From the IMG/VR virus record IMGVR_UViG_2617270984_000006: 14,339 nt of DNA. One strand, written 5' to 3'. Positions 1 to 14,339 of the stretch are shown here, piece after piece (the stretch's first letter is position 1; each line of letters opens with the position of its first letter). The notes beneath the pieces are model-generated. The model made no database searches. It had not been told where the DNA came from and worked only from the letters and a program-made list of their open reading frames with translations. This stretch comes from a virus. Lineage: Duplodnaviria > Heunggongvirae > Uroviricota > Caudoviricetes. Position numbers and translations under genes: made by a program.

Positions 1-546
1 ATGAATATTAGTGAACTTAAAAAGTGTATACACTATGAAGTAATAGGTTATAAACGCCCTTTCTCCTGGCGAAAAGCAATTGTTCGCGCAATAAAACACA
101 GAAGATTACGTTATTTATTTTGGTGGCGCATAGCCAAATACCTTTTTGATAAAGGCGGATACTGTCGGAAGATTGCGGGAAAAATAGAACGTTTCATTCT
201 TGATAAATACAATGTAACCGTTCCCTTAACTGTAAATATTGGTAAAGGGTTTGACATATCTTATCTCAATGGCGTTGTTATCGGTCACAAAGTTACAATA
301 GGTGAAAATTGTTCAATTAAGCCTGGAGTAACTATTGGACTTCGCGGTGAATTTAATGATATGGATATTGTCATAGGAAATAATGTAACCATTGGCTGTA
401 ACGCCACCATCCTTGGTGGCAAAGTGCATATAGGGAATGATGTAAAAATAGGAGCTCATGCATTGGTACTGCATGACATTCCTGATGACTCCACATTCAT
501 TACTAAATTTCACTCTGAAATTATTTATAACTCATCTCACACATAA
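1..546 (+). CDS. Hexapeptide-repeat (left-handed beta-helix) acetyltransferase, WcaB/CysE-like; probable cargo gene
   Basis: 181-aa ORF beginning exactly at window base 1, so the true 5' end could lie upstream. Tandem [LIV]-G-x4 hexapeptide units (GVVIGHKVTIGENCSIKPGVTIG; IGNNVTIGCNATILGGKVHIGNDVKIGAHALV) preceded by a basic/aromatic N-terminal region, as in WcaB/CysE-type O-acetyltransferases. Visibly AT-rich relative to the adjacent tfa/stf genes (not computed). Confidence 0.7.
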   Translation: MNISELKKCIHYEVIGYKRPFSWRKAIVRAIKHRRLRYLFWWRIAKYLFDKGGYCRKIAGKIERFILDKYNVTVPLTVNIGKGFDISYLNGVVIGHKVTIGENCSIKPGVTIGLRGEFNDMDIVIGNNVTIGCNATILGGKVHIGNDVKIGAHALVLHDIPDDSTFITKFHSEIIYNSSHT

Positions 547-556
547 TTCCGTTTAA

Positions 557-1129
557 TCACAGCTCTGGCCATACAATATCCGGAGCTGTATTTATATCAA
601 TCCGACTCACTAATACCCGGTATTTTTTCCAGGAAGATAGCATCGATACTTCCTCATCAGTTGCCATTTCAAAATTAACAGCATCCTGCAGAATTGTTAT
701 GTTATCAGTCGCTTCCTGGATTAATCTTGCCTTTTTCTCTTCCGCCTCCCGGATCCGGAACAGTTTTTCTCCTTCTGCATCTTTCACCCAGGCTGTGCCG
801 TTCCACTTCTGAAACTCCCCATCCGGCGACAACCAAGTGACGTTTTCTGGTAATGGGCCAAGTTCAGAAATAAATAACGCGTCGCCGGAAGCCACGTCAT
901 AGACGGTTTTTCCCCGATGGTCTTCAACGAGATGCCACAATGCCTCATCACTGTTGAAAACAGCCACGAAGCCAGCCGGAATATCTGGCGGTGCAATATC
1001 GGTACTCTTTGCAGGCAGCCCTGTATGGGGTGGAATATATGCATCACCTTCACCAATAAATTCATTAGTTCCGGACAGCAGATTATAAATTTTTATGGTC
1101 CGTGATTGTTCACTCATTCTGAATGCCAT
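557..1129 (-). CDS. tfa: Tail fibre assembly protein (lambda Tfa family)
   Basis: 190-aa ORF. The N-terminal ~130 aa ([92 protein letters not shown]) closely resemble lambdoid Tfa proteins as I recall them. Its ATG overlaps the stf stop (TAATG on the minus strand), the classic stf-tfa arrangement. Confidence 0.85.
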
Positions 1130-2244
1130 TATGCAAGCCTCACAATATAGTTAAATGCGATGTTTTTGACGGTGTTTTCCGCGTTACCAGCAGCGTTAAC
1201 GGTGATGGTGTGTCCATGTGAACCAATCGCAACAAAGTGCGTATGTGCACCAATAGCGACAGTATGTGTATGCGCCCCAGCACTTGCTGCGGTACCTGAT
1301 ACTGAGTGGGTATGCGCGCCAGCAGAATTCGTTGCACCTAAGTGAGTTTGAGCAGAGTTCGACGAAGCTACTCTACCGGAGCTAACGTTAGCATTATCCC
1401 CCTGAGATATCGGATGCGTATGTGCACCTGCTGAAGCTGCTGTTCCGCTAACGCTATGGGTATGCGCACCAGTGTTATTCGTAGATTTAGTTCCATAATC
1501 AAACGATGATGTGTTTTTTGTCCCTAAATCTGTATTTGAAGCACTGGCGCTGTGGGTGTGCGATTTAATGCCGTCCTGTTCCTGAGACAATACGGCACGA
1601 CCACTGGCGGGCTTGCCCTTAATCGTCCAGCCACGCATATCAGGGATCACGCCTGACGGATAAGCGGCTGCAAGTTTCGGGTATGCAGACTTGTCAAAAG
1701 TCTGTCCCTGCATCAGAGCATAACCAGATGGAACTGTATCTGATGGCCACGGGATCGGGGCACCTACAGGAAAGGTCGAATTATTTTCCAAACCAAGATA
1801 TTTAAGGACATCAGCAACAGAGCTTTTTGCCAAAATATCTCGCCCAACCTGTGTCAGGTCAGCCAAATTAGCGGTATCTTGATTGGTAAAATACGGTAAT
1901 TTGTTTTCGGATGCTGAAAGATTAGCAAGTGCGGTAAGTATGGCATTAATTCTCTGATAGTTCTTATCTAATGCAGACGACATTTTTGCGATAAAGCCGG
2001 CCTGATCGCCATCGTCCTGTACATCCAGTCCACTTTCATTTGCTGTATATTGTGCCATTGCAGATGCAATAAAGCTGGCCTGTCGAATAACCTTATTGAC
2101 TTGCGCACTGGATGCTTTCCCTGCTGTAAATCCGGATAAAAGCGCAGGCAACGCTTCCCATTCCTCCTGCGACATAACATTGGCATTTTTACCCGTTGCG
2201 AATGCTTTAAAGTCATTTTTTGCCATCAGAGTAATACTCCCCAT
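1129..2244 (-). CDS. stf: Side tail fibre protein, distal receptor-binding portion only (lambda Stf-like); probably a 5'-truncated remnant
   Basis: 371-aa ORF. Segments ENKLPYF...[22 protein letters not shown]...[75 protein letters not shown] and the C-terminal [13 protein letters not shown] match the C-terminal region of lambda Stf from memory. Repeated G-A-H-T-H/H-G-H motifs. An in-frame stop lies 3 codons upstream of the ATG, and no shaft/anchor region is present upstream. Confidence 0.8.
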
Positions 2245-2374
2245 GCCCCTACATCAAAACCACTGATGAATTCGTTATCCATATCAAAACCAAAAAATTT
2301 TGAACCTTCCGATGGGGTTTCCACCGAAGGTGTTTCAATGCCACCCGCCCATACCCCGGCGGCTTTTACTGTGA

Positions 2375-2983
2375 GATAAACGAGTAGTTCAGATTGATGC
2401 TCTCGACAGCGCATTACAGGGCGTCAAACGAGCCAGAGCGCTGCTTAAACCTGCTCTCCTGGACCTGTCCCGTAACATTCTTAAGTTCTGGGACGACCTG
2501 CCAACCATCGGCGAGCGACGTGCTTTTGCCGAGCAGCTACTTGATGCACCTGCAGATGGGCGTGATGAAGTTAAGCCGAAAAAGGCCAGTAACAAAGATG
2601 GAGAACGCACGGGGCCGTTTTACGTCAAAAATGTATCCGGCACAGCAGCCAGTGAACTCCACACCTTACGCAAGTTGAACGAGATGCTTAAAAAAGGCCA
2701 TATCGAGATCAACCGTGTTGAGTACCTTCAGCTGCAGGAAGAATTTGCACGCAGAGACGCAGCAAATTCCAGTCAGAATAATGACGCCAAAGATGACCAT
2801 ACAATTGATTTCGCGGCACTACGCAAACAAGCTGAAGGGTTGATCCTCCAGTTAGCAAAAGGGGGTTACCGGGCAGAAGCTATTGCAATTCTGGAAAAAC
2901 AGGGAGCCAGGAAACTTGGTGAAGTAACGGATGAAAATCTCGCTGAAGTAATCACCCTGGCTGAAAAAGCACTGGAGGGTTAA
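2375..2983 (+). CDS. Hypothetical protein; frame open from 2375 with no canonical start before TTG 2675 (possible 5'-truncated gene)
   Basis: Frame of the listed ORF 2675..2983 stays open back to a TGA at 2372-2374 and translates into protein-like sequence (..[60 protein letters not shown]..). Its stop lies 2 nt before the DUF2800 ATG, preceded by GGAGGG, indicating translational coupling. No ATG/GTG/TTG occurs in frame before 2675, and TTG 2675 has no obvious Shine-Dalgarno. A minimal call would be 2675..2983. Confidence 0.4.
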
Positions 2984-2985
2984 TC

Positions 2986-4287
2986 ATGCCAGACGTTCAC
3001 GCACAACTTTCTCCATCATCAGCGCATCGATGGATGCGCTGCCCAGGAAGTCTGGCGCTGGAGGCCACACAACCGGATAAAGAAACAACTTTTGCAATCG
3101 AGGGCACTGCAGCGCATGCACTTGCCGAAAAGGTGCTGCGCAACCGCCAGAGCCACCCGGAGCACTATGCAGGTTGCACCGTCGCGATGTTCCTCGGATC
3201 CTATCCTCTTGCTGAGCACCCGGATGATACTTCCGGCCCGCAGGTAGATGAGGAAATGGTCGAAGCCGTTGGTCGTTACGTCGACACTGTTTGGGCGCTG
3301 GCGCAGGGCAATGAGCTGCTGGTCGAGCAGCGTGTCGACTTCTCCCATATCGTGGGCGTAGACGAGTCATTCGGTACCGCCGACGGCGTAATCATCGCGG
3401 GCAACGAGCTGCAGATCCACGATCTGAAATACGGTAAGGGTGTGCGGGTCGACGCCGAGCAGAACGAGCAGCTGCAGCTGTATGCCCTTGGCGCACTCGA
3501 ACAGTTCAGCATGCTGTACGACTTCGAGACGGTGCGCCTGTTCATCCACCAGCCGCGGCTTAACCACGTTTCAGAGTGGGCTCTGACGGTGGAAGAGCTC
3601 CAGGCGTTCGGCGAACGGGCGCAGGAAGCGGCAGCCAGTGTAATCGTGATGTTCAACATCGCCGATTGCGAAGGCGTCGAAACCCTGCCGCTGGAAAACT
3701 TCACCCCCGGGGAAAAACAGTGCCGATTCTGCAAAGCCAAAGCAGTCTGCATTGCTCAGAAAATGCAGCACATGCAAACTGCTGCCAGCGATTTCGAAGA
3801 CCTGACCAAACCGGTTAGTGAAATCATCACTGATGCCAGCTCGCGCGTACCGCTTCTGACAATCGAGGAACTGGCGGAGATCTACAGCCAGGCCGACTTT
3901 ATTGAATCCTGGCTAAAGGCTGTGCGCGACCGGGTGAACAGTGAGCTGAACGCCGGGCATCCGGTACCGGGCTTTAAGTTGGTTACTGGTAAACAGGGTA
4001 ATCGCGCCTGGAGCGATGAAGAAGCCGCCCGCGCGCTGCTGAAAGACCAGTTCAGGTACAAAACTGAAGAAGTATTCGACTTTAAACTTATTAGTCCCAC
4101 AAAAGCCGAAAAACTTATCAAAAAGGCCAGTCCGCGCCGTTGGTCAAAAGTCGAGGCACTGATAACACGAGCTGATGGTAAACCCACCGTCGTTCCCGAG
4201 TCAGACCCACGCCCCGCACTCAATATCAACCCTGTAAATGATTTCGACGACGTATCCGACGATACGCTAACCGCAGACCTCATCTGA
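2986..4287 (+). CDS. DUF2800-family PD-(D/E)XK nuclease, Cas4/RecB-like, with putative Fe-S cysteine set
   Basis: 433-aa ORF with RBS GGAGGG. Nuclease-like motifs [15 protein letters not shown] and QLQLYAL (QxxxY). One N-terminal Cys (RWMRCPGS) plus C-x2-C-x5-C ([10 protein letters not shown]), the pattern of Cas4/AddB-type iron-sulfur nucleases. First gene of a DUF2800-DUF2815-PolA synteny typical of phage replication modules. Confidence 0.8.
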
Positions 4288-4302
4288 TTTAAGGAAATAC
4301 CC

Positions 4303-4851
4303 ATGAAACTGAAGCTGAACAATGTTCGTCTGGCCTTCCCGTCTCTGTTTGAAGCTAAAACTGTAAACGGCGAAGGCGATCCGCGTTTCTCCGCAGTATT
4401 TTTAATGTCACCCAAACACCCACAACTGGAAGAAATCCGTAAAGCTATGAAGCAGGTAGCGAAGGAAAAATGGGGAGAAAAGTGGGAGCCCATTTATAGC
4501 CAGCTGGAGAAAAAACTCAATCTGTGCCTACATGATGGTGATGAAAAAGCAGAGTATGAAGGCTTTCCCGGTAATTTCTTCCTGAATGCTGCTAACAAAG
4601 CGCGCCCAGCTGTTCTTGATCGCGATCGTTCGCCACTAATTCAGGCTGATGGACGTCCCTATGCAGGGTGCTATGTAAACGCCGTTATCGATATCTGGGC
4701 ACAGGACAATAATTTCGGTAAACGCATTAATGCCTCACTCGGCGGAGTCCAGTTCCTGCGAGACGGCGATGCATTCGCTGGCGGCGGAGTGGCAAGCGCT
4801 GACGATTTTGACGATATCAGCGAAGGTGCTGATGCTGAAGCACTAATTTAA
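4303..4851 (+). CDS. DUF2815-family phage protein (putative ssDNA-binding/replication accessory)
   Basis: 182-aa ORF with RBS AAGGAAA 7 nt upstream. N-terminus MKLKLNNVRLAFPSLFE and acidic C-terminal tail (DDFDDISEGADAEALI) resemble DUF2815/phage SSB-like proteins; position between DUF2800 and PolA fits the conserved module. Confidence 0.75.
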   Translation: MKLKLNNVRLAFPSLFEAKTVNGEGDPRFSAVFLMSPKHPQLEEIRKAMKQVAKEKWGEKWEPIYSQLEKKLNLCLHDGDEKAEYEGFPGNFFLNAANKARPAVLDRDRSPLIQADGRPYAGCYVNAVIDIWAQDNNFGKRINASLGGVQFLRDGDAFAGGGVASADDFDDISEGADAEALI

Positions 4852-4861
4852 AAATATTCAT

Positions 4862-4882
4862 CCCCCAGCTACGTGCTGGGGG
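4862..4882. other. Perfect GC-rich stem-loop (8-bp stem, 5-nt loop) at the boundary of an AT-rich insertion
   Basis: cccccagc (4862-4869) / tacgt / gctggggg (4875-4882), exact reverse complements. No T-tract follows on the + strand; a weak T-rich stretch follows on the - strand. Lies between the DUF2815 stop and the first AT-rich gene. Confidence 0.5.
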
Positions 4883-4902
4883 ATCTCATGAGGGAAAGTA
4901 TA

Positions 4903-5544
4903 ATGTCACAGCCCGTATTAACTAATCACCTTAAAACTCAAATCATCAATAACGCACTTGAGAAAGCGGGTATCCCCAAACGTAAATCAGCACTACGAGC
5001 TGCTCGTGTTGAATGGGCCGAACGTGTTCGGCTTGCAGCTATCGGGGGCGTAGAGAAAGAAGCTGAAATATTAAAAAATATAAAAAAGATTGAATCCATG
5101 GTCACAAAAATCCCTGATTCATTAAAAACCAATAGTTCTTTAATTCGAAAAGATTGCTGCATATATCTCAATCTGGCTGGAGCCAGAGCAAACATTTATT
5201 TCAATGGCAACTACAGAGGTTATGAATCAGGAGCCCCCGAGCATATTAATAAAATAGCACCTGCAGAATTTACTCTACTTGGCGAAGATCCTCTGGTAAC
5301 GGAGTTTTATAGCTTTGATGCTCTCTACACACAAATTAAAAGTGATGAAACCGAAATCATACAGAACGTCAGCGCGGCTCTAAATAAAGTTCGGACAGTA
5401 AAACGATTACTGGATGTATGGCCCGAAGCTAAAGAACTGCTTCCAACAGACGCACCGCCAGTCCCTTTAGCACCAGCGGTACATCGAGAGACATTAAATG
5501 AAATGATAGGCCTTCCTACCAATACAGTGTCTGATACTCAATAA
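4903..5544 (+). CDS. Hypothetical protein (AT-rich accessory gene X); no family recognised
   Basis: Listed ORF starts at GTG 4873 inside the stem-loop; ATG 4903 (MSQPVLTNH..) has an AGGGAAAG Shine-Dalgarno-like element 7 nt upstream, and ATG 4888 is an alternative. About 213 aa from 4903. AT-rich compared with flanking replication genes (by eye). Confidence 0.55.
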   Translation: MSQPVLTNHLKTQIINNALEKAGIPKRKSALRAARVEWAERVRLAAIGGVEKEAEILKNIKKIESMVTKIPDSLKTNSSLIRKDCCIYLNLAGARANIYFNGNYRGYESGAPEHINKIAPAEFTLLGEDPLVTEFYSFDALYTQIKSDETEIIQNVSAALNKVRTVKRLLDVWPEAKELLPTDAPPVPLAPAVHRETLNEMIGLPTNTVSDTQ

Positions 5545-6227
5545 CAAGGGGGATGCTTATTATATGATTTTGAACGTTTTACAATCTCGTTAAGAGGCGT
5601 GAAATCAAAATCTCTGAATAACACATCAGGATACTTCGCTCTTGCTTTATCCAGCAGACCAGTTAAAGTATTTTTTGTGTTACCCAACATTGTATTAACC
5701 GCCACTACATGTCTAATTTCTGGAGGTTTATCTATACCACCAGAAATTGCTTCATTAAGAACCGACGCCAGTGGGGTTTGTCCCTTACTTGTTGAATCCC
5801 ACAGCGTCATTAACAGACGAACTGCGTCTATAAATAGCTTTTTGTCAGCATTTGGCTTGACAGTAATACCAGAACTACCTGAGCCAGAACCGGAACGTTC
5901 TATTGCTGCACTGGTATCCGATTTCATAGGATTAAATAACGGCAGCTCTGTACAACCGATACGCCGAATGAAATCCTTTGCAACATCTCTACCACAGAAA
6001 AAAGCCCCTGTACAATTTTCATCAGAGCGTTTTTTAAATGAAAAACAATAGTACTGATCGGTTAACGGATAACCGGAATAACTGGTTTTAGTTTGTCCAG
6101 TAATAAGTTTCAGGTGTGCAACAGGCTGAATAGTAAAATCCCGAACTATCGCATCTTTTATGTCGTTACCACGGTGACAATAATATTCAGGTAATCCATT
6201 AGGCTGTCTCTTATTACCCACAGTCAT
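5538..6227 (-). CDS. Hypothetical two-domain protein (AT-rich accessory gene Y); Cys-rich N-domain, Gly/Ser linker, helical C-domain
   Basis: 229-aa ORF with strong RBS (AAAGGAG 7 nt upstream of the ATG on the minus strand). Internal SGSGSGSSG linker; N-terminal region carries five Cys (YYCHRGN..YYCFSF..CTGAFFCGRD..RRIGC). 3' end overlaps the convergent gene X by 7 bp. Confidence 0.6.
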   Translation of the reverse strand: MTVGNKRQPNGLPEYYCHRGNDIKDAIVRDFTIQPVAHLKLITGQTKTSYSGYPLTDQYYCFSFKKRSDENCTGAFFCGRDVAKDFIRRIGCTELPLFNPMKSDTSAAIERSGSGSGSSGITVKPNADKKLFIDAVRLLMTLWDSTSKGQTPLASVLNEAISGGIDKPPEIRHVVAVNTMLGNTKNTLTGLLDKARAKYPDVLFRDFDFTPLNEIVKRSKSYNKHPPCY

Positions 6228-6288
6228 TAGTTGTCTCCTTTAATTCATGATATCTAGCATTTAACCATATACCATATGAGGATATTTT
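6228..6288. promoter_or_regulatory. AT-rich divergent intergenic region; probable promoters for gene Y (-) and the polA operon (+)
   Basis: 61-bp AT-rich spacer between divergent start codons, with RBSs on both sides (GAGGA for polA, AAAGGAG for gene Y). Candidate sigma70-like hexamers TTGTCT (6231-6236) and TAGCAT (6254-6259) with 17-bp spacing; weak match, not validated. Confidence 0.3.
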
Positions 6289-8352
6289 ATGTCCAATATA
6301 CTATGGGGCGACCTGGAAACCTATTGTGACATTCCGATCAACAACGGTACCCATGCGTATGCCGAAGGCGTTGAAGTGATGCTTTTCGCATGGGCTATCA
6401 ACGACGGGCCAGTAAACGTGTGGGATATCACTGCCGGTGGTGGTATTCCACACGGCTTATACGAAGCAATCGCAGACCCTGAAACCCTGCTTTATTTCCA
6501 TAACTCTCACTTCGACCGCACCGTTCTGCGTTATGCAATGCCGCGACTGGCACCGCCAGTCGAACGTTGGCGCGACACGATGGTGCAGGCGCTGGCGCAC
6601 GGTCTCCCGGGGTCTCTGGGGGAACTCTGCGAAGTACTAGGCGTCCCGCAAGACAAAGCGAAGGACAAAGAAGGTAAAGCGCTGATCCAGCTGTTCTGTA
6701 AGCCACGCCCGAAAAACAGCAAACTGCGTCGGGCCACCAGTAAAACCCACCCGGAAGAATGGCGGCGCTTTGTTGCTTACGCCGGACTGGATATCGAGGC
6801 AATGCGCGAAGTCTATAAACGTCTGCCGAAGTGGAATTATCAGGGGACAGAGCTGGCGCTCTGGCATCGTGATCAGCAGATCAACGACCGGGGCGTCTGC
6901 ATGGACATGCAACTCGCGCGCGCTGCGATCGAAGCGGTAGACCAGGAGCAAAAGCGCCTGGCAAAGCGTACACAGGAAATGACTGATGGCGAAGTGCAGG
7001 CAGCCACACAACGGGACGCGTTGATTAAGCACATCGTTGAATCCTACGGTGTGGAGCTACCAGACATGCAACGCAGTACCCTAGAACGTCGTATAGCCGA
7101 CCCCGATTTACCATCTGCCGTGAAAGAACTGCTGGCTATCCGCCTGCAAGCCAGTACTACCAGCACCAGTAAATACAAGGCACTAATGAAAGGCGTAAGC
7201 CACGACGGGCGCTTACGCGGTACGCTACAGTTCTGCGGGGCGTCGCGTACCGGGCGCTGGGCCGGACGGCTATTCCAGCCCCAGAACCTTCCCCGCCCTT
7301 CACTAAAACAGGAACAAATAGACGAAGGCATCGAAGCACTGAAAGCCGGATGTGCAGACCTGCTGTTTGACAATATCATGGAACTAACCAGTTCAGCGTT
7401 ACGTGGCTGCATTATCGCGCCAACAGGCAAAAAACTGGTGGTAAGTGACTTGTCGAACATTGAAGGCCGTATGCTGTCATGGCTGGCAGGAGAAGAATGG
7501 AAACTGAATGCATTCAGAGAGTACGACGCCGGAACGGGTCCGGACTTATATAAACTGGCGTATGCAAAAGCTTTTGATATTGCACCAGATGATGTTGATA
7601 AACGCATGCGTCAGATCGGTAAAGTCATGGAACTCGGTCTGGGTTATGGTGGTGGTGTGTCGGCCTTCATCACTTTTGCACTGGTTTACGGTCTCGATCT
7701 CGACGAGCTGGCAAACGCTGCACTGCCAAACATTCCCCGCGATGTTATCCGCGAGGCGAAAAGCTGGTACGGCGAATCGGTTAAACGTAAGTCAACCTAC
7801 GGCCTTTCTGAACGGGTATTTATCGCCTGCGACTCACTTAAACGTCTCTGGCGCCGGGCGCATCCCGCGACCTGTGATTTCTGGTACGAACTGGAGCGCA
7901 CCGTCCGCACTGCAATCGCCACACCGCAAAAAACATTGTATTGCGGTTATCTTAAAATCCGCCGCGATGGCGCGTGGCTACGCATACAGCTACCATCCGG
8001 ACGCGCTGTATGCTACCCGTCTCCGGTTATCGAACAAGGGAATATCACCTACATGGGTGTTAACTCTTATTCGCGTAAATGGCAACGACTCAAAACCTAC
8101 GGCGGAAAGCTGGTGGAGAACGTCACCCAGGCGGCCGCCCGCGACGTTCTGGCCGGAAACATGCCGCTTATCGAAGATGCCGGTTACAGCATTGTGCTGA
8201 CGGTACACGACGAGGTGATCACCGAAGCACCTGACACAGAAGATTTCAACGATAAAGCGCTTTCCGCGCTTCTCTCCACTAACCCCGAATGGGCGCCCGA
8301 TATCCCACTGAACGCTGGCGGTTTTGAGGCGTACCGCTACCGTAAGGATTAA
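6289..8352 (+). CDS. Family A DNA polymerase (phage type) with 3'-5' proofreading exonuclease domain
   Basis: 687-aa ORF. Exo motifs DLETY (Exo I), [10 protein letters not shown] (Exo II), YAGLDIEAM (Exo III). Polymerase motif [13 protein letters not shown], motif [17 protein letters not shown], motif C LTVHDEV. No 5'-3' exonuclease domain is evident. Confidence 0.9.
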
Positions 8353-8357
8353 CTCCT

Positions 8358-8573
8358 ATGTCATTTAAATACCGGGACAATCCACTTTATTACAGGGCTG
8401 CAAGGGAGGCTTTGCGACTTGAACAATCCGGCGAATATGACCGGGCAGCGAAGGTCTGGGCAAAAGCCAACCGCGAATCACATCACGAATTGAATCAGGA
8501 ATGGAGTGAACGCAGATCTGATTTTTGCCTGATGCAGAATATGCGTGAAAAGCGTAAGGTGGTCGAAGAATGA
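8358..8573 (+). CDS. Small basic protein, possibly PerC/ANR-like regulator
   Basis: 71-aa ORF with AAGGA RBS. The pattern YYRAAREALRLEQSGEYDRAAKVW...RRSDFC is reminiscent of small PerC/ANR-type prophage regulators; assignment from memory only. Stop overlaps the next start (ATGA). Confidence 0.45.
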   Translation: MSFKYRDNPLYYRAAREALRLEQSGEYDRAAKVWAKANRESHHELNQEWSERRSDFCLMQNMREKRKVVEE

Positions 8574-8869
8574 TCGTTTACGTTGCCGGGCCGATGAGCG
8601 GTTACGAGCAATTTAACCGCCCGGCTTTTCATTCCGCAGCAAAGAAGCTAACGGACAAGGGATATGTTGTGCTTAACCCCGCAACTGTACCCAATGGTTT
8701 GACACAGGCTCAGTATATGGACATCTGCCTCACAATGCTTCGCTGTGCCGATACGATTTATATGCTCAAAGAGTGGGAGTACTCTGCCGGCGCACGTGCA
8801 GAAAACGCGTTGGCAGAGAAACTGGAATTGAATGTGCTTTTTGAAGAGTGGGATTCAGATGGCCTATGA
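8570..8869 (+). CDS. DUF4406-family protein (nucleoside 2-deoxyribosyltransferase-like fold)
   Basis: 99-aa ORF starting MIVYVAGPMSGYEQFNRP...VVLNPAT, the characteristic N-terminal signature of DUF4406/deoxyribosyltransferase-like proteins. GGTGG RBS; ATGA overlap with the upstream ORF. Confidence 0.65.
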   Translation: MIVYVAGPMSGYEQFNRPAFHSAAKKLTDKGYVVLNPATVPNGLTQAQYMDICLTMLRCADTIYMLKEWEYSAGARAENALAEKLELNVLFEEWDSDGL

Positions 8870-9128
8870 ACGTGAAAGCCTTATCGAAAAGCACCTCGTC
8901 GCTGAAGTGAAAAAAGCTGGCGGAGTGGCCTTTAAGTTTGTATCTCCCGGTCACCGCTCGGTACCGGATCGCATTGTCCTGCTACCAGGTGGTCGTATCT
9001 TTTTCGTTGAATGTAAATCACCCGGCAAGCCACCACGGCCTGACCAGTTGCGCGAACATGAACGTCTGCGAAAACTGGGCTTTACCGTAGTGGTGCTGGA
9101 TAGCAAGAACCTAGAGAGGATATTATAA
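8859..9128 (+). CDS. VRR-NUC domain nuclease
   Basis: Likely start at ATG 8859 (MAYERESLIEKH), overlapping the DUF4406 stop; the listed ORF begins at 8832. PD-(D/E)xK-type motif ...VPDRIVLLPGGRIFFVECKSPGK... typical of VRR-NUC. Confidence 0.8.
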   Translation: MAYERESLIEKHLVAEVKKAGGVAFKFVSPGHRSVPDRIVLLPGGRIFFVECKSPGKPPRPDQLREHERLRKLGFTVVVLDSKNLERIL

Positions 9129-9132
9129 AAAT

Positions 9133-9702
9133 TTAGTCAATGCCTTTTTGATTGAACTTCTGATTCTCCAGTATGCCTTGCAGCTCAATATTATCATTTG
9201 CAGCGGTTTGTTTATGCTCATGATATTTTTCTTGTGTATAATTTCTTTCTCTTAGTTTCTGTGCATAATTATTAGAAATAATATCATGACGATCTTGTAA
9301 TACTTGTTCAAGTTGACTTTTAAAGTCCTCTATCTTTTCATTAGAAATAACATTTTTGTACTTTTCAATATCACGGCGAAGTTCTTTTTCTTTCTTCTTA
9401 TTAATGCTTAATAACTGTCGATTAACGCTACCTAAGGACCATTTAAACCCAATCGACTTTATCCAATGTGCCAGAAACATAGCGCAACTGGGAAGCATTA
9501 ATAAAAGAAATGGCTTTATTGTATTTAAATCAGAACCAATATACGGAAAACGACCGTCCCACGAGGACACCAGTAATGTTAAAAAACCAGTGATGCCACC
9601 AGCAGCAACATTAGAAATCAGAGGGACTTTTTCGTAGCTATCAGGTTTAGAGGCGCTACTCAAACGTCCCTCCTTTGACTGATCTTCCAGCACGAATGGC
9701 AT
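9133..9702 (-). CDS. Predicted membrane protein with two hydrophobic helices and a long charged coiled-coil-like C-terminal region (cassette gene C)
   Basis: 189-aa ORF. Hydrophobic segments LISNVAAGGITGFLTLLVSSW and IKPFLLLMLPSCAMFLAHWI, then a K/E/R/Q-rich tail (KKKEKELRRDIEKYKNVISNEKIEDFKSQLEQVLQDRHD...). An alternative TTG start sits after AAGGAGG just downstream of the listed ATG. Very AT-rich. Its stop is 4 nt from the convergent VRR-NUC stop. Confidence 0.6.
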   Translation of the reverse strand: MPFVLEDQSKEGRLSSASKPDSYEKVPLISNVAAGGITGFLTLLVSSWDGRFPYIGSDLNTIKPFLLLMLPSCAMFLAHWIKSIGFKWSLGSVNRQLLSINKKKEKELRRDIEKYKNVISNEKIEDFKSQLEQVLQDRHDIISNNYAQKLRERNYTQEKYHEHKQTAANDNIELQGILENQKFNQKGID

Positions 9703-9904
9703 TCATTGCAATTTTGTAAAATTCATCATCAGAAGAGACATCAACGACATCGCGACGGACAACTCCTTCTGAGTCAACACATTCAAGAACAAGATGATGT
9801 TTAGGCATAAGCGCAAAGCGTAACCGGTCAAACCCCATCTTAAGAACCCAATATAGTACGGGAAGCAGGCTAAAAAAAGCCAGCCAAAAAGCAAAAGCAA
9901 TCAT
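9656..9904 (-). CDS. Small single-pass membrane protein (cassette gene B)
   Basis: 82-aa ORF. N-terminal hydrophobic helix MIAFAFWLAFFSLLPVLYWVL followed by an acidic soluble tail. Strong RBS GGGGAGGGGG immediately upstream on the minus strand. Overlaps gene C by 47 nt in a different frame. Confidence 0.5.
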   Translation of the reverse strand: MIAFAFWLAFFSLLPVLYWVLKMGFDRLRFALMPKHHLVLECVDSEGVVRRDVVDVSSDDEFYKIAMNAIRAGRSVKGGTFE

Positions 9905-9927
9905 AGCCCCCTCCCCATGTGAATCTA

Positions 9928-10806
9928 CTATAAGATGCCGTGTACTTTAACAACTATGTACGTTTTGTCCAGCGAATTCAAGTTCTCACGGACGAGCAAA
10001 TCAACGAAGTAAGCATCACTAAAAACACCAGGTTCTCTTCCCGTACTAACACGTTGTAAGAACTCAGTATCTTCTATAGACACGCTGATTGTGTCATCGC
10101 CATAGTTGACTCGCCAGCCTGTGTTTTTATCCTTATGAATAGTCAAAAATGTGATTAGAGCCTCTTCAATCACCCTTTCAGACAAGGACTGCACTACAGG
10201 AACGCGCCTATATCTGAACGGTTCAATATTATCTTCGTGCACCTTAATCAGCTCAACCCCCTGTTGAGTTGAAATTTTAAGCGATTCGTATCCTTCCTTT
10301 TGCAAAGGATTATGAATTAACTTCGATAAGGATTTGCGTATGCTTGGTGAGGCAAGTAAAGGCCGGAAATATGACGGGGCTATAATTTCCTCACCATCAT
10401 CCATAACTATTTTACAGTCTCCTTCCGCTGTTAAAGTCAACCGTTTTATTTGCCTACCATTGATCTGACGAATTAAGTCAATGAGAGTATTTCCTGCTGC
10501 GAGTGCAGCTGTACCTCCAAGCCCAATAATGCTTAATATATTCAAATGGTCAAGTGGATTTTGAATAACATCAATCAAATACTCAAATGAGCCTTCTTTA
10601 AAAGGCTCAACCTCAACATTAATACACTCACTAGTGCCATTGACAACCAAATTAACTTCTTTAAGCAAGTTGTTTAGTCCATTCAATGACTCAGTTAAAA
10701 CATCCAAATCTATTTTATGATCTGCTAGTGCGGGGCCATCATATTTAACAACTAATTTATCAGTAATATTTTCTTCTTGCTGGACATCTGTATAAGCTGA
10801 GGTCAT
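9928..10806 (-). CDS. Hypothetical soluble protein, 292 aa (cassette gene A); no family recognised
   Basis: Long AT-rich ORF antisense to the replication operon. RBS AAAGGAA about 6 nt upstream of the ATG. Gly-rich stretch IGLGGTAALAAGNTL; no catalytic motif that I can name. Confidence 0.65.
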   Translation of the reverse strand: MTSAYTDVQQEENITDKLVVKYDGPALADHKIDLDVLTESLNGLNNLLKEVNLVVNGTSECINVEVEPFKEGSFEYLIDVIQNPLDHLNILSIIGLGGTAALAAGNTLIDLIRQINGRQIKRLTLTAEGDCKIVMDDGEEIIAPSYFRPLLASPSIRKSLSKLIHNPLQKEGYESLKISTQQGVELIKVHEDNIEPFRYRRVPVVQSLSERVIEEALITFLTIHKDKNTGWRVNYGDDTISVSIEDTEFLQRVSTGREPGVFSDAYFVDLLVRENLNSLDKTYIVVKVHGIL

Positions 10807-10873
10807 AACTGTTCCTTTCGAAATAAATAATTAAGCTATTACTACATAAGTTCATTCATGGAGATACAATACC
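10807..10873. promoter_or_regulatory. AT-rich divergent intergenic region; probable promoter(s) for the antisense three-gene cassette and for the SNF2 helicase gene
   Basis: 67-bp AT-rich spacer between divergent start codons, each with its own RBS (AAAGGAA for gene A, GGAGAT for the helicase). Several weak -10/-35-like hexamers; none singled out. Confidence 0.3.
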
Positions 10874-12271
10874 ATGGACTATGCTATATTTTCACCTCAC
10901 CCCTACCAAGATCTCATCATCAATCATCAAATCGACATTATGCGCTGCAACATCTGGGCAGGCATGGGAATGGGTAAAACCATGGCAACGCTCATTGCGC
11001 TGGAAGATCTTTTTATGGCAGGGGCAGAAACACGCCCCGCACTGGTCCTCGCGCCGCTACGTGTTGCAGCAAACACCTGGCCGGATGAAGCAGTGAAGTG
11101 GGGGCATTTGCGCAATATCGAGGTGCAGCCGATTGTTGGTAATGCCAAAGCGCGCTCTACGGCGCTGGCGAACAGCAACGCAAGCGTGTTCACCATCAAC
11201 TACGATAACCTTGTCTGGCTGGTTGAAGAATTGGGAGAACGATGGCCGTTCGGTATTGTCATTCCAGATGAAAGCACCCGGCTAAAATCCTTCCGGCTGC
11301 GAGGTGGTGGTAAGCGCGCGGCGGCGCTGGGCAAAGTGGCGCATAAGTATGTCCGGCGCTGGATAAATCTCACCGGTACGCCAGCACCGAACGGCCTGGT
11401 AGATTTGTGGGGACAATCGTGGTTTGTGGACCAAGGGCAACGTCTCGGGCGCACTTACGGCGCGTTTACCTCACGCTGGTTCAACTCGATACAGTTTCCG
11501 GGACAGAGCTGGACTAAACTGGAGCCTTTTGCTCACTCACAGGGTGAAATACAGCGAGCATTAGCCGATGTGACCCTCTCGCTGGATGCGGCCGACTGGT
11601 TCGATATCAAAGACCCCATCCATAACGTAATCCGCGTGGATATGCCGCCGAAGGCCCGTCAGCAGTATCGTGAAATGGAAAAGGAAATGTTCCTCGAGCT
11701 GAATGGCGAAGGTATCGAAGCACCGAACGCCGCGGCAAAGACACTGAAGTGTCTTCAAATCGCCAGTGGCGCAGTATACACAGACGACACCGGAAGTTGG
11801 TCAGAACTGCATGACACCAAACTACAGGCGCTGGACAGCATACTGACCGAAGCAGCTGGCGCACCTGTGCTGGTTGCTTATCACTGGAAACACGATCTTG
11901 AACGCTTGCTTAAAGCATTCCCTCGCGGTCGTCACCTCGACCAGGATCCACAGACACTGCGCGACTGGAATTCCGGAAAGATTCCTGTTCTCTTTGCACA
12001 CCCAGCCAGCGCGGGCCACGGCCTGAACATGCAGGACGGCGGGAATATACTGGTATTTTTCTCACACTGGTGGGACCTGGAGCAATATCAGCAAATTATT
12101 GAACGTATCGGCCCCACCAGGCAGATACAGGCCGGACACAATCGTCCGGTATTTATTCACCACATTATTGCTGCCGACACTATGGACGAAATGGTGATGG
12201 AGCGGCGCAACTCAAAACGAACAGTGCAGGACATCCTGCTCGATGCCATGAAAAAGAGAGGTATAGCATGA
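10874..12271 (+). CDS. SNF2-family (DEAD/DEAH-box-like) helicase
   Basis: 465-aa ORF. Walker A AGMGMGKT, DExx box IPDESTRLK, C-terminal helicase motif HPASAGHGLNMQ. Final gene of the replication module. Confidence 0.9.
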   Translation: MDYAIFSPHPYQDLIINHQIDIMRCNIWAGMGMGKTMATLIALEDLFMAGAETRPALVLAPLRVAANTWPDEAVKWGHLRNIEVQPIVGNAKARSTALANSNASVFTINYDNLVWLVEELGERWPFGIVIPDESTRLKSFRLRGGGKRAAALGKVAHKYVRRWINLTGTPAPNGLVDLWGQSWFVDQGQRLGRTYGAFTSRWFNSIQFPGQSWTKLEPFAHSQGEIQRALADVTLSLDAADWFDIKDPIHNVIRVDMPPKARQQYREMEKEMFLELNGEGIEAPNAAAKTLKCLQIASGAVYTDDTGSWSELHDTKLQALDSILTEAAGAPVLVAYHWKHDLERLLKAFPRGRHLDQDPQTLRDWNSGKIPVLFAHPASAGHGLNMQDGGNILVFFSHWWDLEQYQQIIERIGPTRQIQAGHNRPVFIHHIIAADTMDEMVMERRNSKRTVQDILLDAMKKRGIA

Positions 12272-12468
12272 GCGAGAAACCCGACGATTTACTCACCCCG
12301 GATGAAGTATGCCAAAAGTTAGGTATTACACAGAAAACGCTATGTGAGTGGAATATTAAGCATCGTCATCGGGCTATCCTGGCACCAATTCGTTTCAGTG
12401 CAAAAGTAGTTCGTTATGAGCGCCGCAATGTAGACGCTTTTATTCAAAAGTGTCGCAGCCGGTATTAA
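12268..12468 (+). CDS. AlpA/excisionase-like helix-turn-helix DNA-binding protein
   Basis: 66-aa ORF; LLTPDEVCQKLGITQKTLCEW...PIRFSAKVVRYERRNVDAFI fits the AlpA/Xis-type HTH pattern. ATGA overlap with the helicase stop. Located next to the integrase, as excisionase/regulator genes usually are. Confidence 0.7.
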   Translation: MSEKPDDLLTPDEVCQKLGITQKTLCEWNIKHRHRAILAPIRFSAKVVRYERRNVDAFIQKCRSRY

Positions 12469-13870
12469 CCTCGCCGTCGTAGCAATGCCACCTGCGCAAG
12501 TATGCTCCGCTCGTGAGCTTCGAAAGCTTCGCGCTTCAACGCAATCTCTTCCTGTAAAATCTCATCAGAAAAGTCGTAATGTTCTGCCATCGGGTCATCT
12601 GACTTGCTGGAGTGATGAAGGCAAAGGAGGCTGATTTCCCTTCGGTCTGAGCGGGAATAGCCTCTTTCCTTCATCAAGGCAATAACATTGCTCTTAAGGA
12701 ATTTACGGCACATAGTATTAAATGCACCGTCTTTCCCTTTAACAGTCCCATCATGTTTTATTCCTTTTACAGCCCCGTCCGGGCTGTATGTTTTCACTAG
12801 CTTATCCAGTGATCGTTTTGAAAATGGCTGCATTGGATCACGTGGCTGCAAAAATACATAATCCCTATTGCACTCAGGAACTGAATCACGCCAGGCTTTC
12901 TGCTCGTCGATAATCCGCCGGATCTCAGGCGTTATCGGCAGGGGGGAAAGCCTTTTTGTTTTTTCATAGCCCCTCGCATGCCGATAACCCCTTCCGGATA
13001 AACAATTTCACCAGCCTCCTCGTGAACGTAGTCCCAGCGCAGGTTATGGACATTAATCGGACGAACGCCAGTGATGATCATGAAGCGAACAGCATTCTTC
13101 TGGTGTACAGAGGCGCAGGCAGCAACATTGAGCCAGAGTCGGGCGATTGATTCAATATCGGTAAAAAGCCGTGTGGGGGTAGGTTTCTGTACGCGGGAGG
13201 AAACATAATCATCTGGCAGACTGGCGGCAACATTGCGGCCGTTGCAAAGAGTAGGTGCGCAGAACTTCCAGAACCGACGGAGCTCGGCAAACAACTCCAG
13301 GGCGTTATTGTTCGAGCGAGTGGCGATCCACTCGTCCAGCACTTCCACCAGCCGATTGTATGTTACGTCGCTGAACACCTCGCGCTCGCCGAACGTTGCT
13401 TTAATCCGGTCTATACGCACCCCGTAGGTTGTGAAACTGTCCGGGCTCAGCTTCTGCCGTGCGACTTTGGCTTTGAGGTCATCCCGGTACATTTCCAGCG
13501 CTGCATGTACGGACTCTGCCCGCAGGCCACCGTCAGCCATACCTAGCGCTTTTTCGCGCGCCAGCTGGATAGCGAGCTCCGGCCACTCGCCGAGCTTTTT
13601 ACCTTTGAGGCCCATCTTTTTTGGAAACTCGGCGTAAAATGTAACCTTACCGGCTTTGCTGAAATCGATACGGAGATAGTTCTCTTTTTCGTATTTGGAA
13701 CGGCGAGCCACACCGGAAGCAGCGAGGATGATTTTGGCGGCAGCAACACAGATTTTCATGTGTGCGCTGGTATAGGGGGGTTTACAGGCGTCCCATTTTT
13801 CAGATGCGGCTAAAACATCGTCATTATTGGGGCTATCCGGATTATGTGTTACAGTGCGCGGCATTCTCAA
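12465..13870 (-). pseudogene. int: Tyrosine-type phage integrase interrupted by a 1-nt frameshift in a homopolymer (or sequencing error)
   Basis: Two ORFs in different frames, 12932..13870 and 12465..12851. The upstream ORF carries box I (ITGVRPINVHNLRWDYV). The downstream frame, read back to 13007, gives EKTKRLSPLPITPEIRRIIDEQ...YVFLQP... and the C-terminal LHHSSKSDDPMAEHYDF (His and catalytic Tyr). The frames can only switch within the T6 run at 12959-12964; one extra T would give a continuous product of roughly 465 aa. Confidence 0.75.

Positions 13871-14339
<469 letters not shown>

Follow-up and report, generated by a model that had tools for sequence, protein, structure and literature searches.

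A defective prophage remnant beside yfhL of Escherichia coli, very probably formed by one internal deletion of about 28 kb

The stretch of DNA analysed here (14,339 nucleotides, IMG/VR record IMGVR_UViG_2617270984_000006; hereafter the window) is very probably a defective prophage remnant that arose by a single internal deletion of about 28 kb, joined at a GATA tetranucleotide. The ancestor would have been a temperate prophage of the myovirus type, of about 41-45 kb, residing between yfhH and yfhL of E. coli, in which one illegitimate (homology-independent) recombination joined two GATA tetranucleotides, one inside the DUF2612 gene and the other inside an early gene of 300 aa just upstream of DUF2800. 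The interval between the two copies would have been deleted, and the immunity, lysis, head and tail genes would have gone with it in one step. The first-pass annotation of this DNA had described a rearrangement scar, and the scar is real: homology to related prophages stops exactly at 2375-2378. It had placed the junction in a zone (2250-2375) that cut both a lambda-type tail fibre gene (stf) and an ORF on the opposite strand, instead of at this single point. The features of the window are:

1..546, + strand: hexapeptide-repeat acetyltransferase, 181 aa (Pfam Hexapep, E=2.2e-13; serine acetyltransferase annotation in the intact prophage)
557..1129, - strand: tail fibre assembly protein, 190 aa, intact (Pfam Caudo_TAP, PF02413, E=2.5e-37; same ORF in the intact prophage)
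1129..2244, - strand: tail fibre gene, intact (371-aa longest ORF; likely start ATG 2226, 365 aa)
2229..2378 (stop 2228-2226), - strand: 3' remnant of a DUF2612/Phage_Wedge1 baseplate gene, last 50 codons
2375..2378, no strand: deletion junction with 4 bp of GATA microhomology (three-way alignment; BLAST coordinates overlap there)
2226..2414, - strand: chimeric 62-aa ORF made by the deletion (translation; product on 11 public contigs)
2375..2983, + strand: 5'-truncated remnant, codons 99-300 of a 300-aa early protein (PHROG 6784 positions 97-298)
2986..4287, + strand: DUF2800/PD-(D/E)XK nuclease gene (Pfam), first intact gene of the kept replication module
12465..13862, - strand: tyrosine integrase, frameshifted, at the yfhL end of the prophage (comparison with the intact gene of locus L004, below)
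14079..14339, + strand: yfhL, chromosomal flank gene (annotation under matches in related genomes)

A megablast search of the window against 5,426 complete E. coli genomes identified 2375-14339 as a prophage adjoining yfhL, and all but one of the matches listed begin at exactly 2375; the exception, in E. coli STEC383, consists of five joined pieces and begins at window position 1. When window 1-2700 was used as the query of a second search of complete E. coli genomes, positions 1-2378 matched in nine genomes, each match ending at exactly 2378. In E. coli S1-IND-01-A (NZ_CP145657.1) both halves of the window lie inside one prophage between yfhH and yfhL: window 1-2378 corresponds to 1586724-1589101 (99.8% identity) and window 2375-14339 to 1617243-1631912 (99.9%), the latter match being interrupted by an IS66-family element. 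The locus of this intact prophage (NZ_CP145657.1, ~1586-1631 kb) is referred to as L004, and window 2375-12236 is 99.96% identical to it. One strand of the intact prophage encodes, from the fibre end, the acetyltransferase, tail fibre assembly protein, tail fibre, DUF2612 and Baseplate_J, onward a spike (split by IS2), baseplate, lytic transglycosylase, sheath/tube-type DUF3383 and DUF3277 and neck genes, and then head genes, portal (DUF1073), TerL, TerS, lysis genes, Q, VapE and a cro-like HTH gene. The other strand begins with a LexA-family repressor, a 49-aa ORF, the 300-aa hypothetical gene and DUF2800, and carries DUF2815 (Enc34-type SSB), Nmad5, DNA polymerase, VRR-NUC, SNF2/DEAD helicase and a tyrosine integrase further on. 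Window and intact prophage share their insertion site: yfhL stands at the right end of the window, and the left side of a contig that is 100% identical to the window (L006) runs on into yfhH, yfhb and tadA, as in intact lysogens. The acetyltransferase at 1..546 closes the tail-fibre cassette on the outside, at the end of the prophage nearest to yfhH.

The breakpoint was placed by the alignment to related prophages that had been proposed earlier, a three-way alignment in which window 2300-2450 was set against the two parental sites of L004. At the junction the left parent has the sequence CTGTGAGATACCCCTG, the right parent GAAGGCGATAAACGAG and the window CTGTGAGATAAACGAG; the only sequence common to both parents there is GATA (window 2375-2378). 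Its copies lie at 5599-5602 (left) and 33744-33747 (right) of L004, so that 28,145 bp are absent from the window, a size taken from a relative with IS2 and IS66 insertions and not from the ancestor of this lineage itself. The deleted interval in S1-IND-01-A holds an IS2 of 1.3 kb, and the deletion would therefore measure about 26.8 kb if the ancestor was free of the IS. By our calculation, at least 4 bases of microhomology are expected at ~1.5% of random junctions; because the 4-bp overlap is this short, it suggests rather than proves a mechanism, which may have been replication slippage or microhomology-mediated joining. Longer repeats, IS ends and inverted repeats were absent from both parental endpoints and from window 1-3000, where the sole inverted repeat is a weak 23-nt pair (74% complementary).

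A deletion made by a mobile element or a site-specific recombinase, that is, an adjacent deletion mediated by IS2 or the action of a Pin/Gin-type invertase, could draw on the IS2 inside the deleted interval of the intact relative and on a DNA invertase that a related prophage record has at this end, beside alternative fibre cassettes. However, an IS-mediated adjacent deletion leaves the IS in place, and no IS sequence or IS end is present at the junction, which disfavours the IS route; the neighbour of the cassette is an acetyltransferase and not an invertase, and the parental endpoints carry no inverted or direct repeats beyond GATA. We regard such an origin as highly improbable. An invertible segment, with a start-less fibre cassette and a Pin-like invertase, was also considered and rejected on account of the acetyltransferase neighbour and the lack of crossover repeats; neither the serine invertase nor the inverted crossover repeats of Pin/Gin/Cin segments were found here.

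On the left side of the junction, the gene that was cut is the DUF2612 baseplate-wedge gene, of which the last 50 codons are left. The translation of window 2378-2229 (- strand), which begins with YLTVK and ends with GAWGVLL at the C-terminus, agrees in every residue with the final 50 positions of the intact 226-aa DUF2612 protein of L004, and the full-length protein matches Pfam DUF2612 with E=5.9e-47. The first-pass annotation had taken stf for the truncated gene on this side and did not contain the DUF2612 remnant at 2229-2378. The deletion put 12 new codons with an ATG (2414), antisense to the 300-aa gene, before the remnant and so created a chimeric 62-aa ORF (2226-2414), which is probably non-functional and serves as a tag of the junction.

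The tail fibre, judged by its homologues and its setting, is a complete protein of 365 aa rather than a piece of a lambda-type fibre of ~774 aa. Its longest ORF (371 aa, 1129-2244, - strand) has the in-frame stop that had been noticed three codons upstream of ATG 2244 (TGA 2256-2254), and its residues 33-371 share ~60% identity with distal lambda Stf, a far longer protein. It was proposed that stf is itself a 5'-truncated lambda-type gene and that the junction cut both genes within 2250-2375. Besides the likeness to lambda Stf, this reading can draw on the C-terminal part, which matches the ends of long-fibre PHROGs, e.g., only positions 522-794 of the 794 of PHROG 295, and on an NCBI label in two genomes that calls part of the gene "incomplete; missing N-terminus". 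However, the identical 371-aa ORF with the same start occurs in the intact prophage (L004 4353-5468), directly downstream of the 226-aa DUF2612 gene (5450-6130), and homology between window and intact prophage runs 131 nt beyond ATG 2244, into DUF2612, before it breaks at 2375-2378. The full-length homologues that were aligned begin at the same residues and carry no extra N-terminal sequence. The best of them have 365 aa and are 99% identical, and dozens of further clusters (333-380 aa; E. coli, Shigella and Salmonella) align over 98% of the query; eight homologues aligned together with the fibre of vB_EcoM-606R2 all begin with MAKNDFK, corresponding to window ATG 2226, and residues 7-60 are nearly invariant. 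Stand-alone fibres of ~370 aa with this N-terminus are thus the normal intact form, an outcome that had been named beforehand as speaking against a truncated stf, and we give a truncation of the fibre very little credence. Among the protein profiles, the match to PHROG 3100 (382 positions) reaches the end of the profile, and the fibre N-terminus aligns with PHROGs 11303 and 1396 from position 1 onward.

The arrangement of the neighbouring genes also has the characteristics of a baseplate-attached short tail fibre. On the - strand the stop of DUF2612 and ATG 2226 read cTGATGg, an overlap of 1 nt with GGGGAG 9 nt upstream, and the same wedge/fibre overlap is found in vB_EcoM-606R2 and in a Salmonella locus (L010) whose fibre is only 64% identical. 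The start of the fibre is likely ATG 2226 (365 aa) and not ATG 2244 of the longest ORF (371 aa). In the Salmonella locus the genes follow each other as Apex spike, sheath initiator, Baseplate_J, Phage_Wedge1 (PF11041, the Pfam family DUF2612) and fibre, and the order Baseplate_J, wedge, fibre, assembly chaperone is common to L004, a further intact relative (L005) and this locus. The fibre has a Collar domain (PF07484, E=2.2e-12), and the next gene encodes the Caudo_TAP chaperone.

Mosaicism of fibre genes is well known, and the likeness to distal lambda Stf reflects such mosaicism and not truncation. Nucleotide similarity to lambdoid-type genes annotated as "prophage tail fiber N-terminal domain" ends at ~1771 (about residue 158, the start of Collar), so that the distal fibre, the chaperone and the acetyltransferase form an exchangeable cassette. 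Window 1-1771 (acetyltransferase, assembly gene and fibre residues 158-371) shows 90-97% nucleotide identity with fibres of lambdoid-type prophages. The NCBI pipeline applies its label "incomplete; missing N-terminus" to the last 645 bp of the fibre gene (L004 4353-4997; 4129-4773 of L002, the STEC383 locus); the gene is mislabelled in these two complete genomes, and the whole 371-aa ORF is open, as checked in L004. A short fibre that resembles the end of lambda Stf need not be a fragment, and the NCBI pipeline makes the same error.

On the right side of the junction, the first-pass annotation had described a frame without a start that leads into DUF2800 and had lost its 5' part, and this description holds. 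The ORF list and the sequence agree that the + strand frame is open from 2375, right after TGA 2372-2374, to TAA 2981-2983, and that its first ATG/GTG/TTG is TTG 2675, followed by ATG 2684; the frame ends 2 nt before the DUF2800 ATG (2986), and the GGAGGG that had been pointed out there lies at 2971-2976. In intact relatives the gene preceding DUF2800 has 903 bp and encodes 300 aa (WP_000051353.1); in L004 it occupies 33450-34352, and homology to the window begins 294 nt inside it. The window product matches PHROG 6784 only at positions 97-298 of 298 (E=4.2e-123) and lacks full coverage of the profile as well as a start codon before 2675, and the full protein spans 1-298. When 5.8 billion proteins were searched, 588 homologues of the 300-aa protein emerged; the best 120 of the 588 come from Escherichia, Salmonella, Citrobacter and Enterobacter, and nearly all of them have 297-321 aa and 99-100% coverage; the records of vB_EcoM-606R2, 611R5 and 689R2 encode the protein at 99.3% identity. 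Since nearly all of these best 120 are of ~300 aa, the outcome that would have spoken against a loss of the 5' part, homologues starting at the equivalent of the TTG or ATG, did not materialise, and the reading of a right-hand truncation stands.

The 300-aa protein is without a match in Pfam, NCBIfam, PADLOC and the PDB sequences. An AlphaFold model built with 30 homologues is all-helical and of moderate confidence (mean pLDDT 61.7), and Foldseek found no match to this model in the PDB with E below 1; the cut at residue 98/99 falls inside the best-predicted helical region of the model (residues 60-170). Window 2660-2965 (residues 194-295 of the 300-aa protein) shows a weak match (E=8e-6 to 3e-5) to PHROG 408, a family of stand-alone proteins of ~111 aa, and the last ~57 aa share 54-71% identity with small hypothetical proteins from Hamiltonella APSE phages (P53) and from Yersinia phages YeP4-6. 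On contigs that bear the junction, gene callers predict the C-terminal 99 aa from ATG 2684. It is conceivable, if improbable, that the remnant is not inert, i.e., that this 99-aa C-terminus is translated from ATG 2684 as a domain similar to PHROG 408 with its coupling into DUF2800 kept, and that the replication/recombination module and a gene similar to PDC-S42 (see below) have been domesticated by the host, e.g., for defence or for replication triggered by a helper.

The exact 62-aa chimeric product was used as a probe for other carriers of the junction and was found on 11 public contigs from isolate assemblies and gut metagenomes. One carrier is the NCBI assembly GCA_000627835.1 (JJME01000046.1), whose sequence agrees with window 1-12414 at 100% identity; the others are seven contigs 0.2-1 Mb in length and three ENA metagenome contigs from different assemblies, one of these derived from a Hadza gut sample. 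The four contigs whose sequence was read do not differ around the junction: the closest difference lies at 2773 and none within ~390 bp, and nearly all the others are located in the distal fibre repeats (1000-1999 bins). It might be suspected that an assembler made a chimeric join of two parts of a complete prophage, since the junction was found in none of the 5,426 complete E. coli genomes (megablast) and a 36-nt junction probe had no exact match in the GTDB species representatives. However, the 11 contigs come from different projects, which rules out an artefact and indicates one inherited event, and an assembler would not be misled by an overlap of as little as 4 bp; the join is almost certainly genuine. 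The junction sequence could mark the lineage of its carrier strains. In one carrier (L007), all 82 differences from the window fall in the 1000-1999 bins (distal His-rich fibre repeats), and two others (L008, L009) are similar; this suggests gene conversion with the fibres of other prophages, or mixing in metagenome assembly.

Gene content and the neighbourhood of the join also bear on the possibility that the window shows a natural mosaic boundary, i.e., that it is a functional mobile element (satellite-like, or a recombinant of two phages) in which a fibre cassette normally stands beside a replication module. Phage types do exchange their tail-fibre cassettes, the lambdoid "prophage tail fiber N-terminal domain" genes have window 1-1771 in common with this DNA, and the retained genes are all open except for the integrase. 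However, a single prophage at the same chromosomal site matches both flanks at 99.8-99.96% identity, two conserved genes are interrupted in mid-sequence by the join (the 300-aa protein inside residues 60-170), and the window is without a repressor, a cro-like gene, a primase and packaging genes, and its integrase is frameshifted. A functional mosaic of this kind is thus very unlikely. Collinearity with one intact prophage, a shared insertion site, cut genes and missing modules are what characterizes a defective remnant, and all of them are found here.

Measured against the intact prophage, the window has lost most of DUF2612 and the other genes for baseplate, tail and head, those for packaging and lysis, and also Q, VapE (primase/helicase), the LexA-family repressor and the cro-like gene. 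The early promoter region is missing too, as are codons 1-98 of the 300-aa gene. Kept on one side is the cassette of tail fibre (intact), tail fibre assembly protein and acetyltransferase, and on the other the replication/recombination module, some accessory genes and the frameshifted integrase. Beyond DUF2800, and as far as 12271, the module encodes an Enc34-type SSB, Nmad5, a family A DNA polymerase, DUF4406, VRR-NUC and an SNF2 helicase. The window ORFs (ORF list, Pfam) include no gene for lysis, terminase, capsid or tail. Of the earlier proposal that a deletion or recombination had fused a tail-fibre remnant to the replication module and left a defective element, the deletion, the fusion of the fibre end to the replication module and the defective state are upheld, and the description of the fibre as a remnant is not.

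From its gene content, the remnant would no longer be inducible, lytic or able to form particles. In the intact phage the early promoter of the DUF2800 operon is expected between the repressor and the 49-aa ORF, and this region is gone; a scan of 1-3200 for promoters and terminators returned no more sites than shuffled sequence does, and the replication operon is presumably without its native promoter. The 99.96% identity of the retained genes with the intact relative indicates that the deletion is recent and is silent on selection. In comparison with the intact 465-aa gene of L004, the frame of the integrase is broken by two 1-nt insertions (in G and T runs) accompanied by two substitutions within ~25 nt (about 12942-12960), which could be real decay or homopolymer sequencing error in a draft assembly. 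Between VRR-NUC and the SNF2 helicase lies a variable slot, occupied in the window by a gene for a 292-aa protein (9928-10806, - strand) together with 9133-9702 and 9656-9904, and in relatives by a TIR-domain gene or DUF6338 instead. Two models match the 292-aa protein: PDC-S42, a candidate-defence model of PADLOC (E=4.7e-40), and the NCBIfam "LAPAL motif-containing putative phage structural protein" (E=3.2e-57).

The closest comparison is with the prophage family at yfhH/yfhL (S1-IND-01-A; vB_EcoM-606R2, 611R5 and 689R2), with which the window shares the site, the gene order and 97-99.96% identity of the kept parts, but from which it differs by lacking the central ~28 kb. The vB_EcoM records carry a different fibre cassette, with an invertase, and because they include flanking bacterial genes they look like predicted prophage regions and not like sequenced virions. 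A sister record of the vB_EcoM series is mentioned in bioRxiv 10.1101/2022.06.29.498070. In L005 (ON470579.1), a DNA invertase and two opposed fibre/chaperone cassettes occupy 3983-6524; this record has a 264-aa fibre with the same MAKNDFK N-terminus, and since it includes the bacterial genes tadA, yfhb and yfhH it represents a predicted prophage region and not the genome of a virion. In STEC383 (L002 5226-6628 and 11679-12581) a different deletion is present in a member of the same family: DUF2612 is followed by one short ORF and then by the holin gene, so that the structural genes have gone, and a stop codon interrupts the 300-aa gene. As the decay in STEC383 is independent, decay is recurrent in the yfhH/yfhL prophage family, and our literature search found no paper on the decay of this family. 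The fibre resembles the mosaic fibres lambda Stf, P2 H and Mu S in its Collar, its His-rich Phage_fiber repeats and the Caudo_TAP chaperone immediately downstream; unlike lambda Stf, its N-terminal ~160 aa are those of short fibres of baseplate-bearing prophages of the myovirus type, which follow DUF2612.

The cryptic prophages of E. coli K-12 (Rac, Qin, DLP12, e14) are products of internal deletions, and decay of prophages by deletion with accessory genes kept is reportedly a general pattern. Like these cryptic prophages, the window has an attachment site between conserved chromosomal genes and only some of the modules, with truncated genes at the breakpoint and without lysis and structural genes. 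In contrast to the lambdoid cryptic prophages, its phage has a myovirus-like structure and a replication module of the DUF2800/family A polymerase/VapE type, and the event is very recent (~0.04-0.2% divergence from the intact relative), so that the parental state can be reconstructed to the base. The window is an ordinary instance of known prophage decay whose significance beyond annotation is small, and it provides a base-precise example of how a prophage can be disarmed in one step, with immunity, lysis and virion genes lost together and replication and accessory genes kept.
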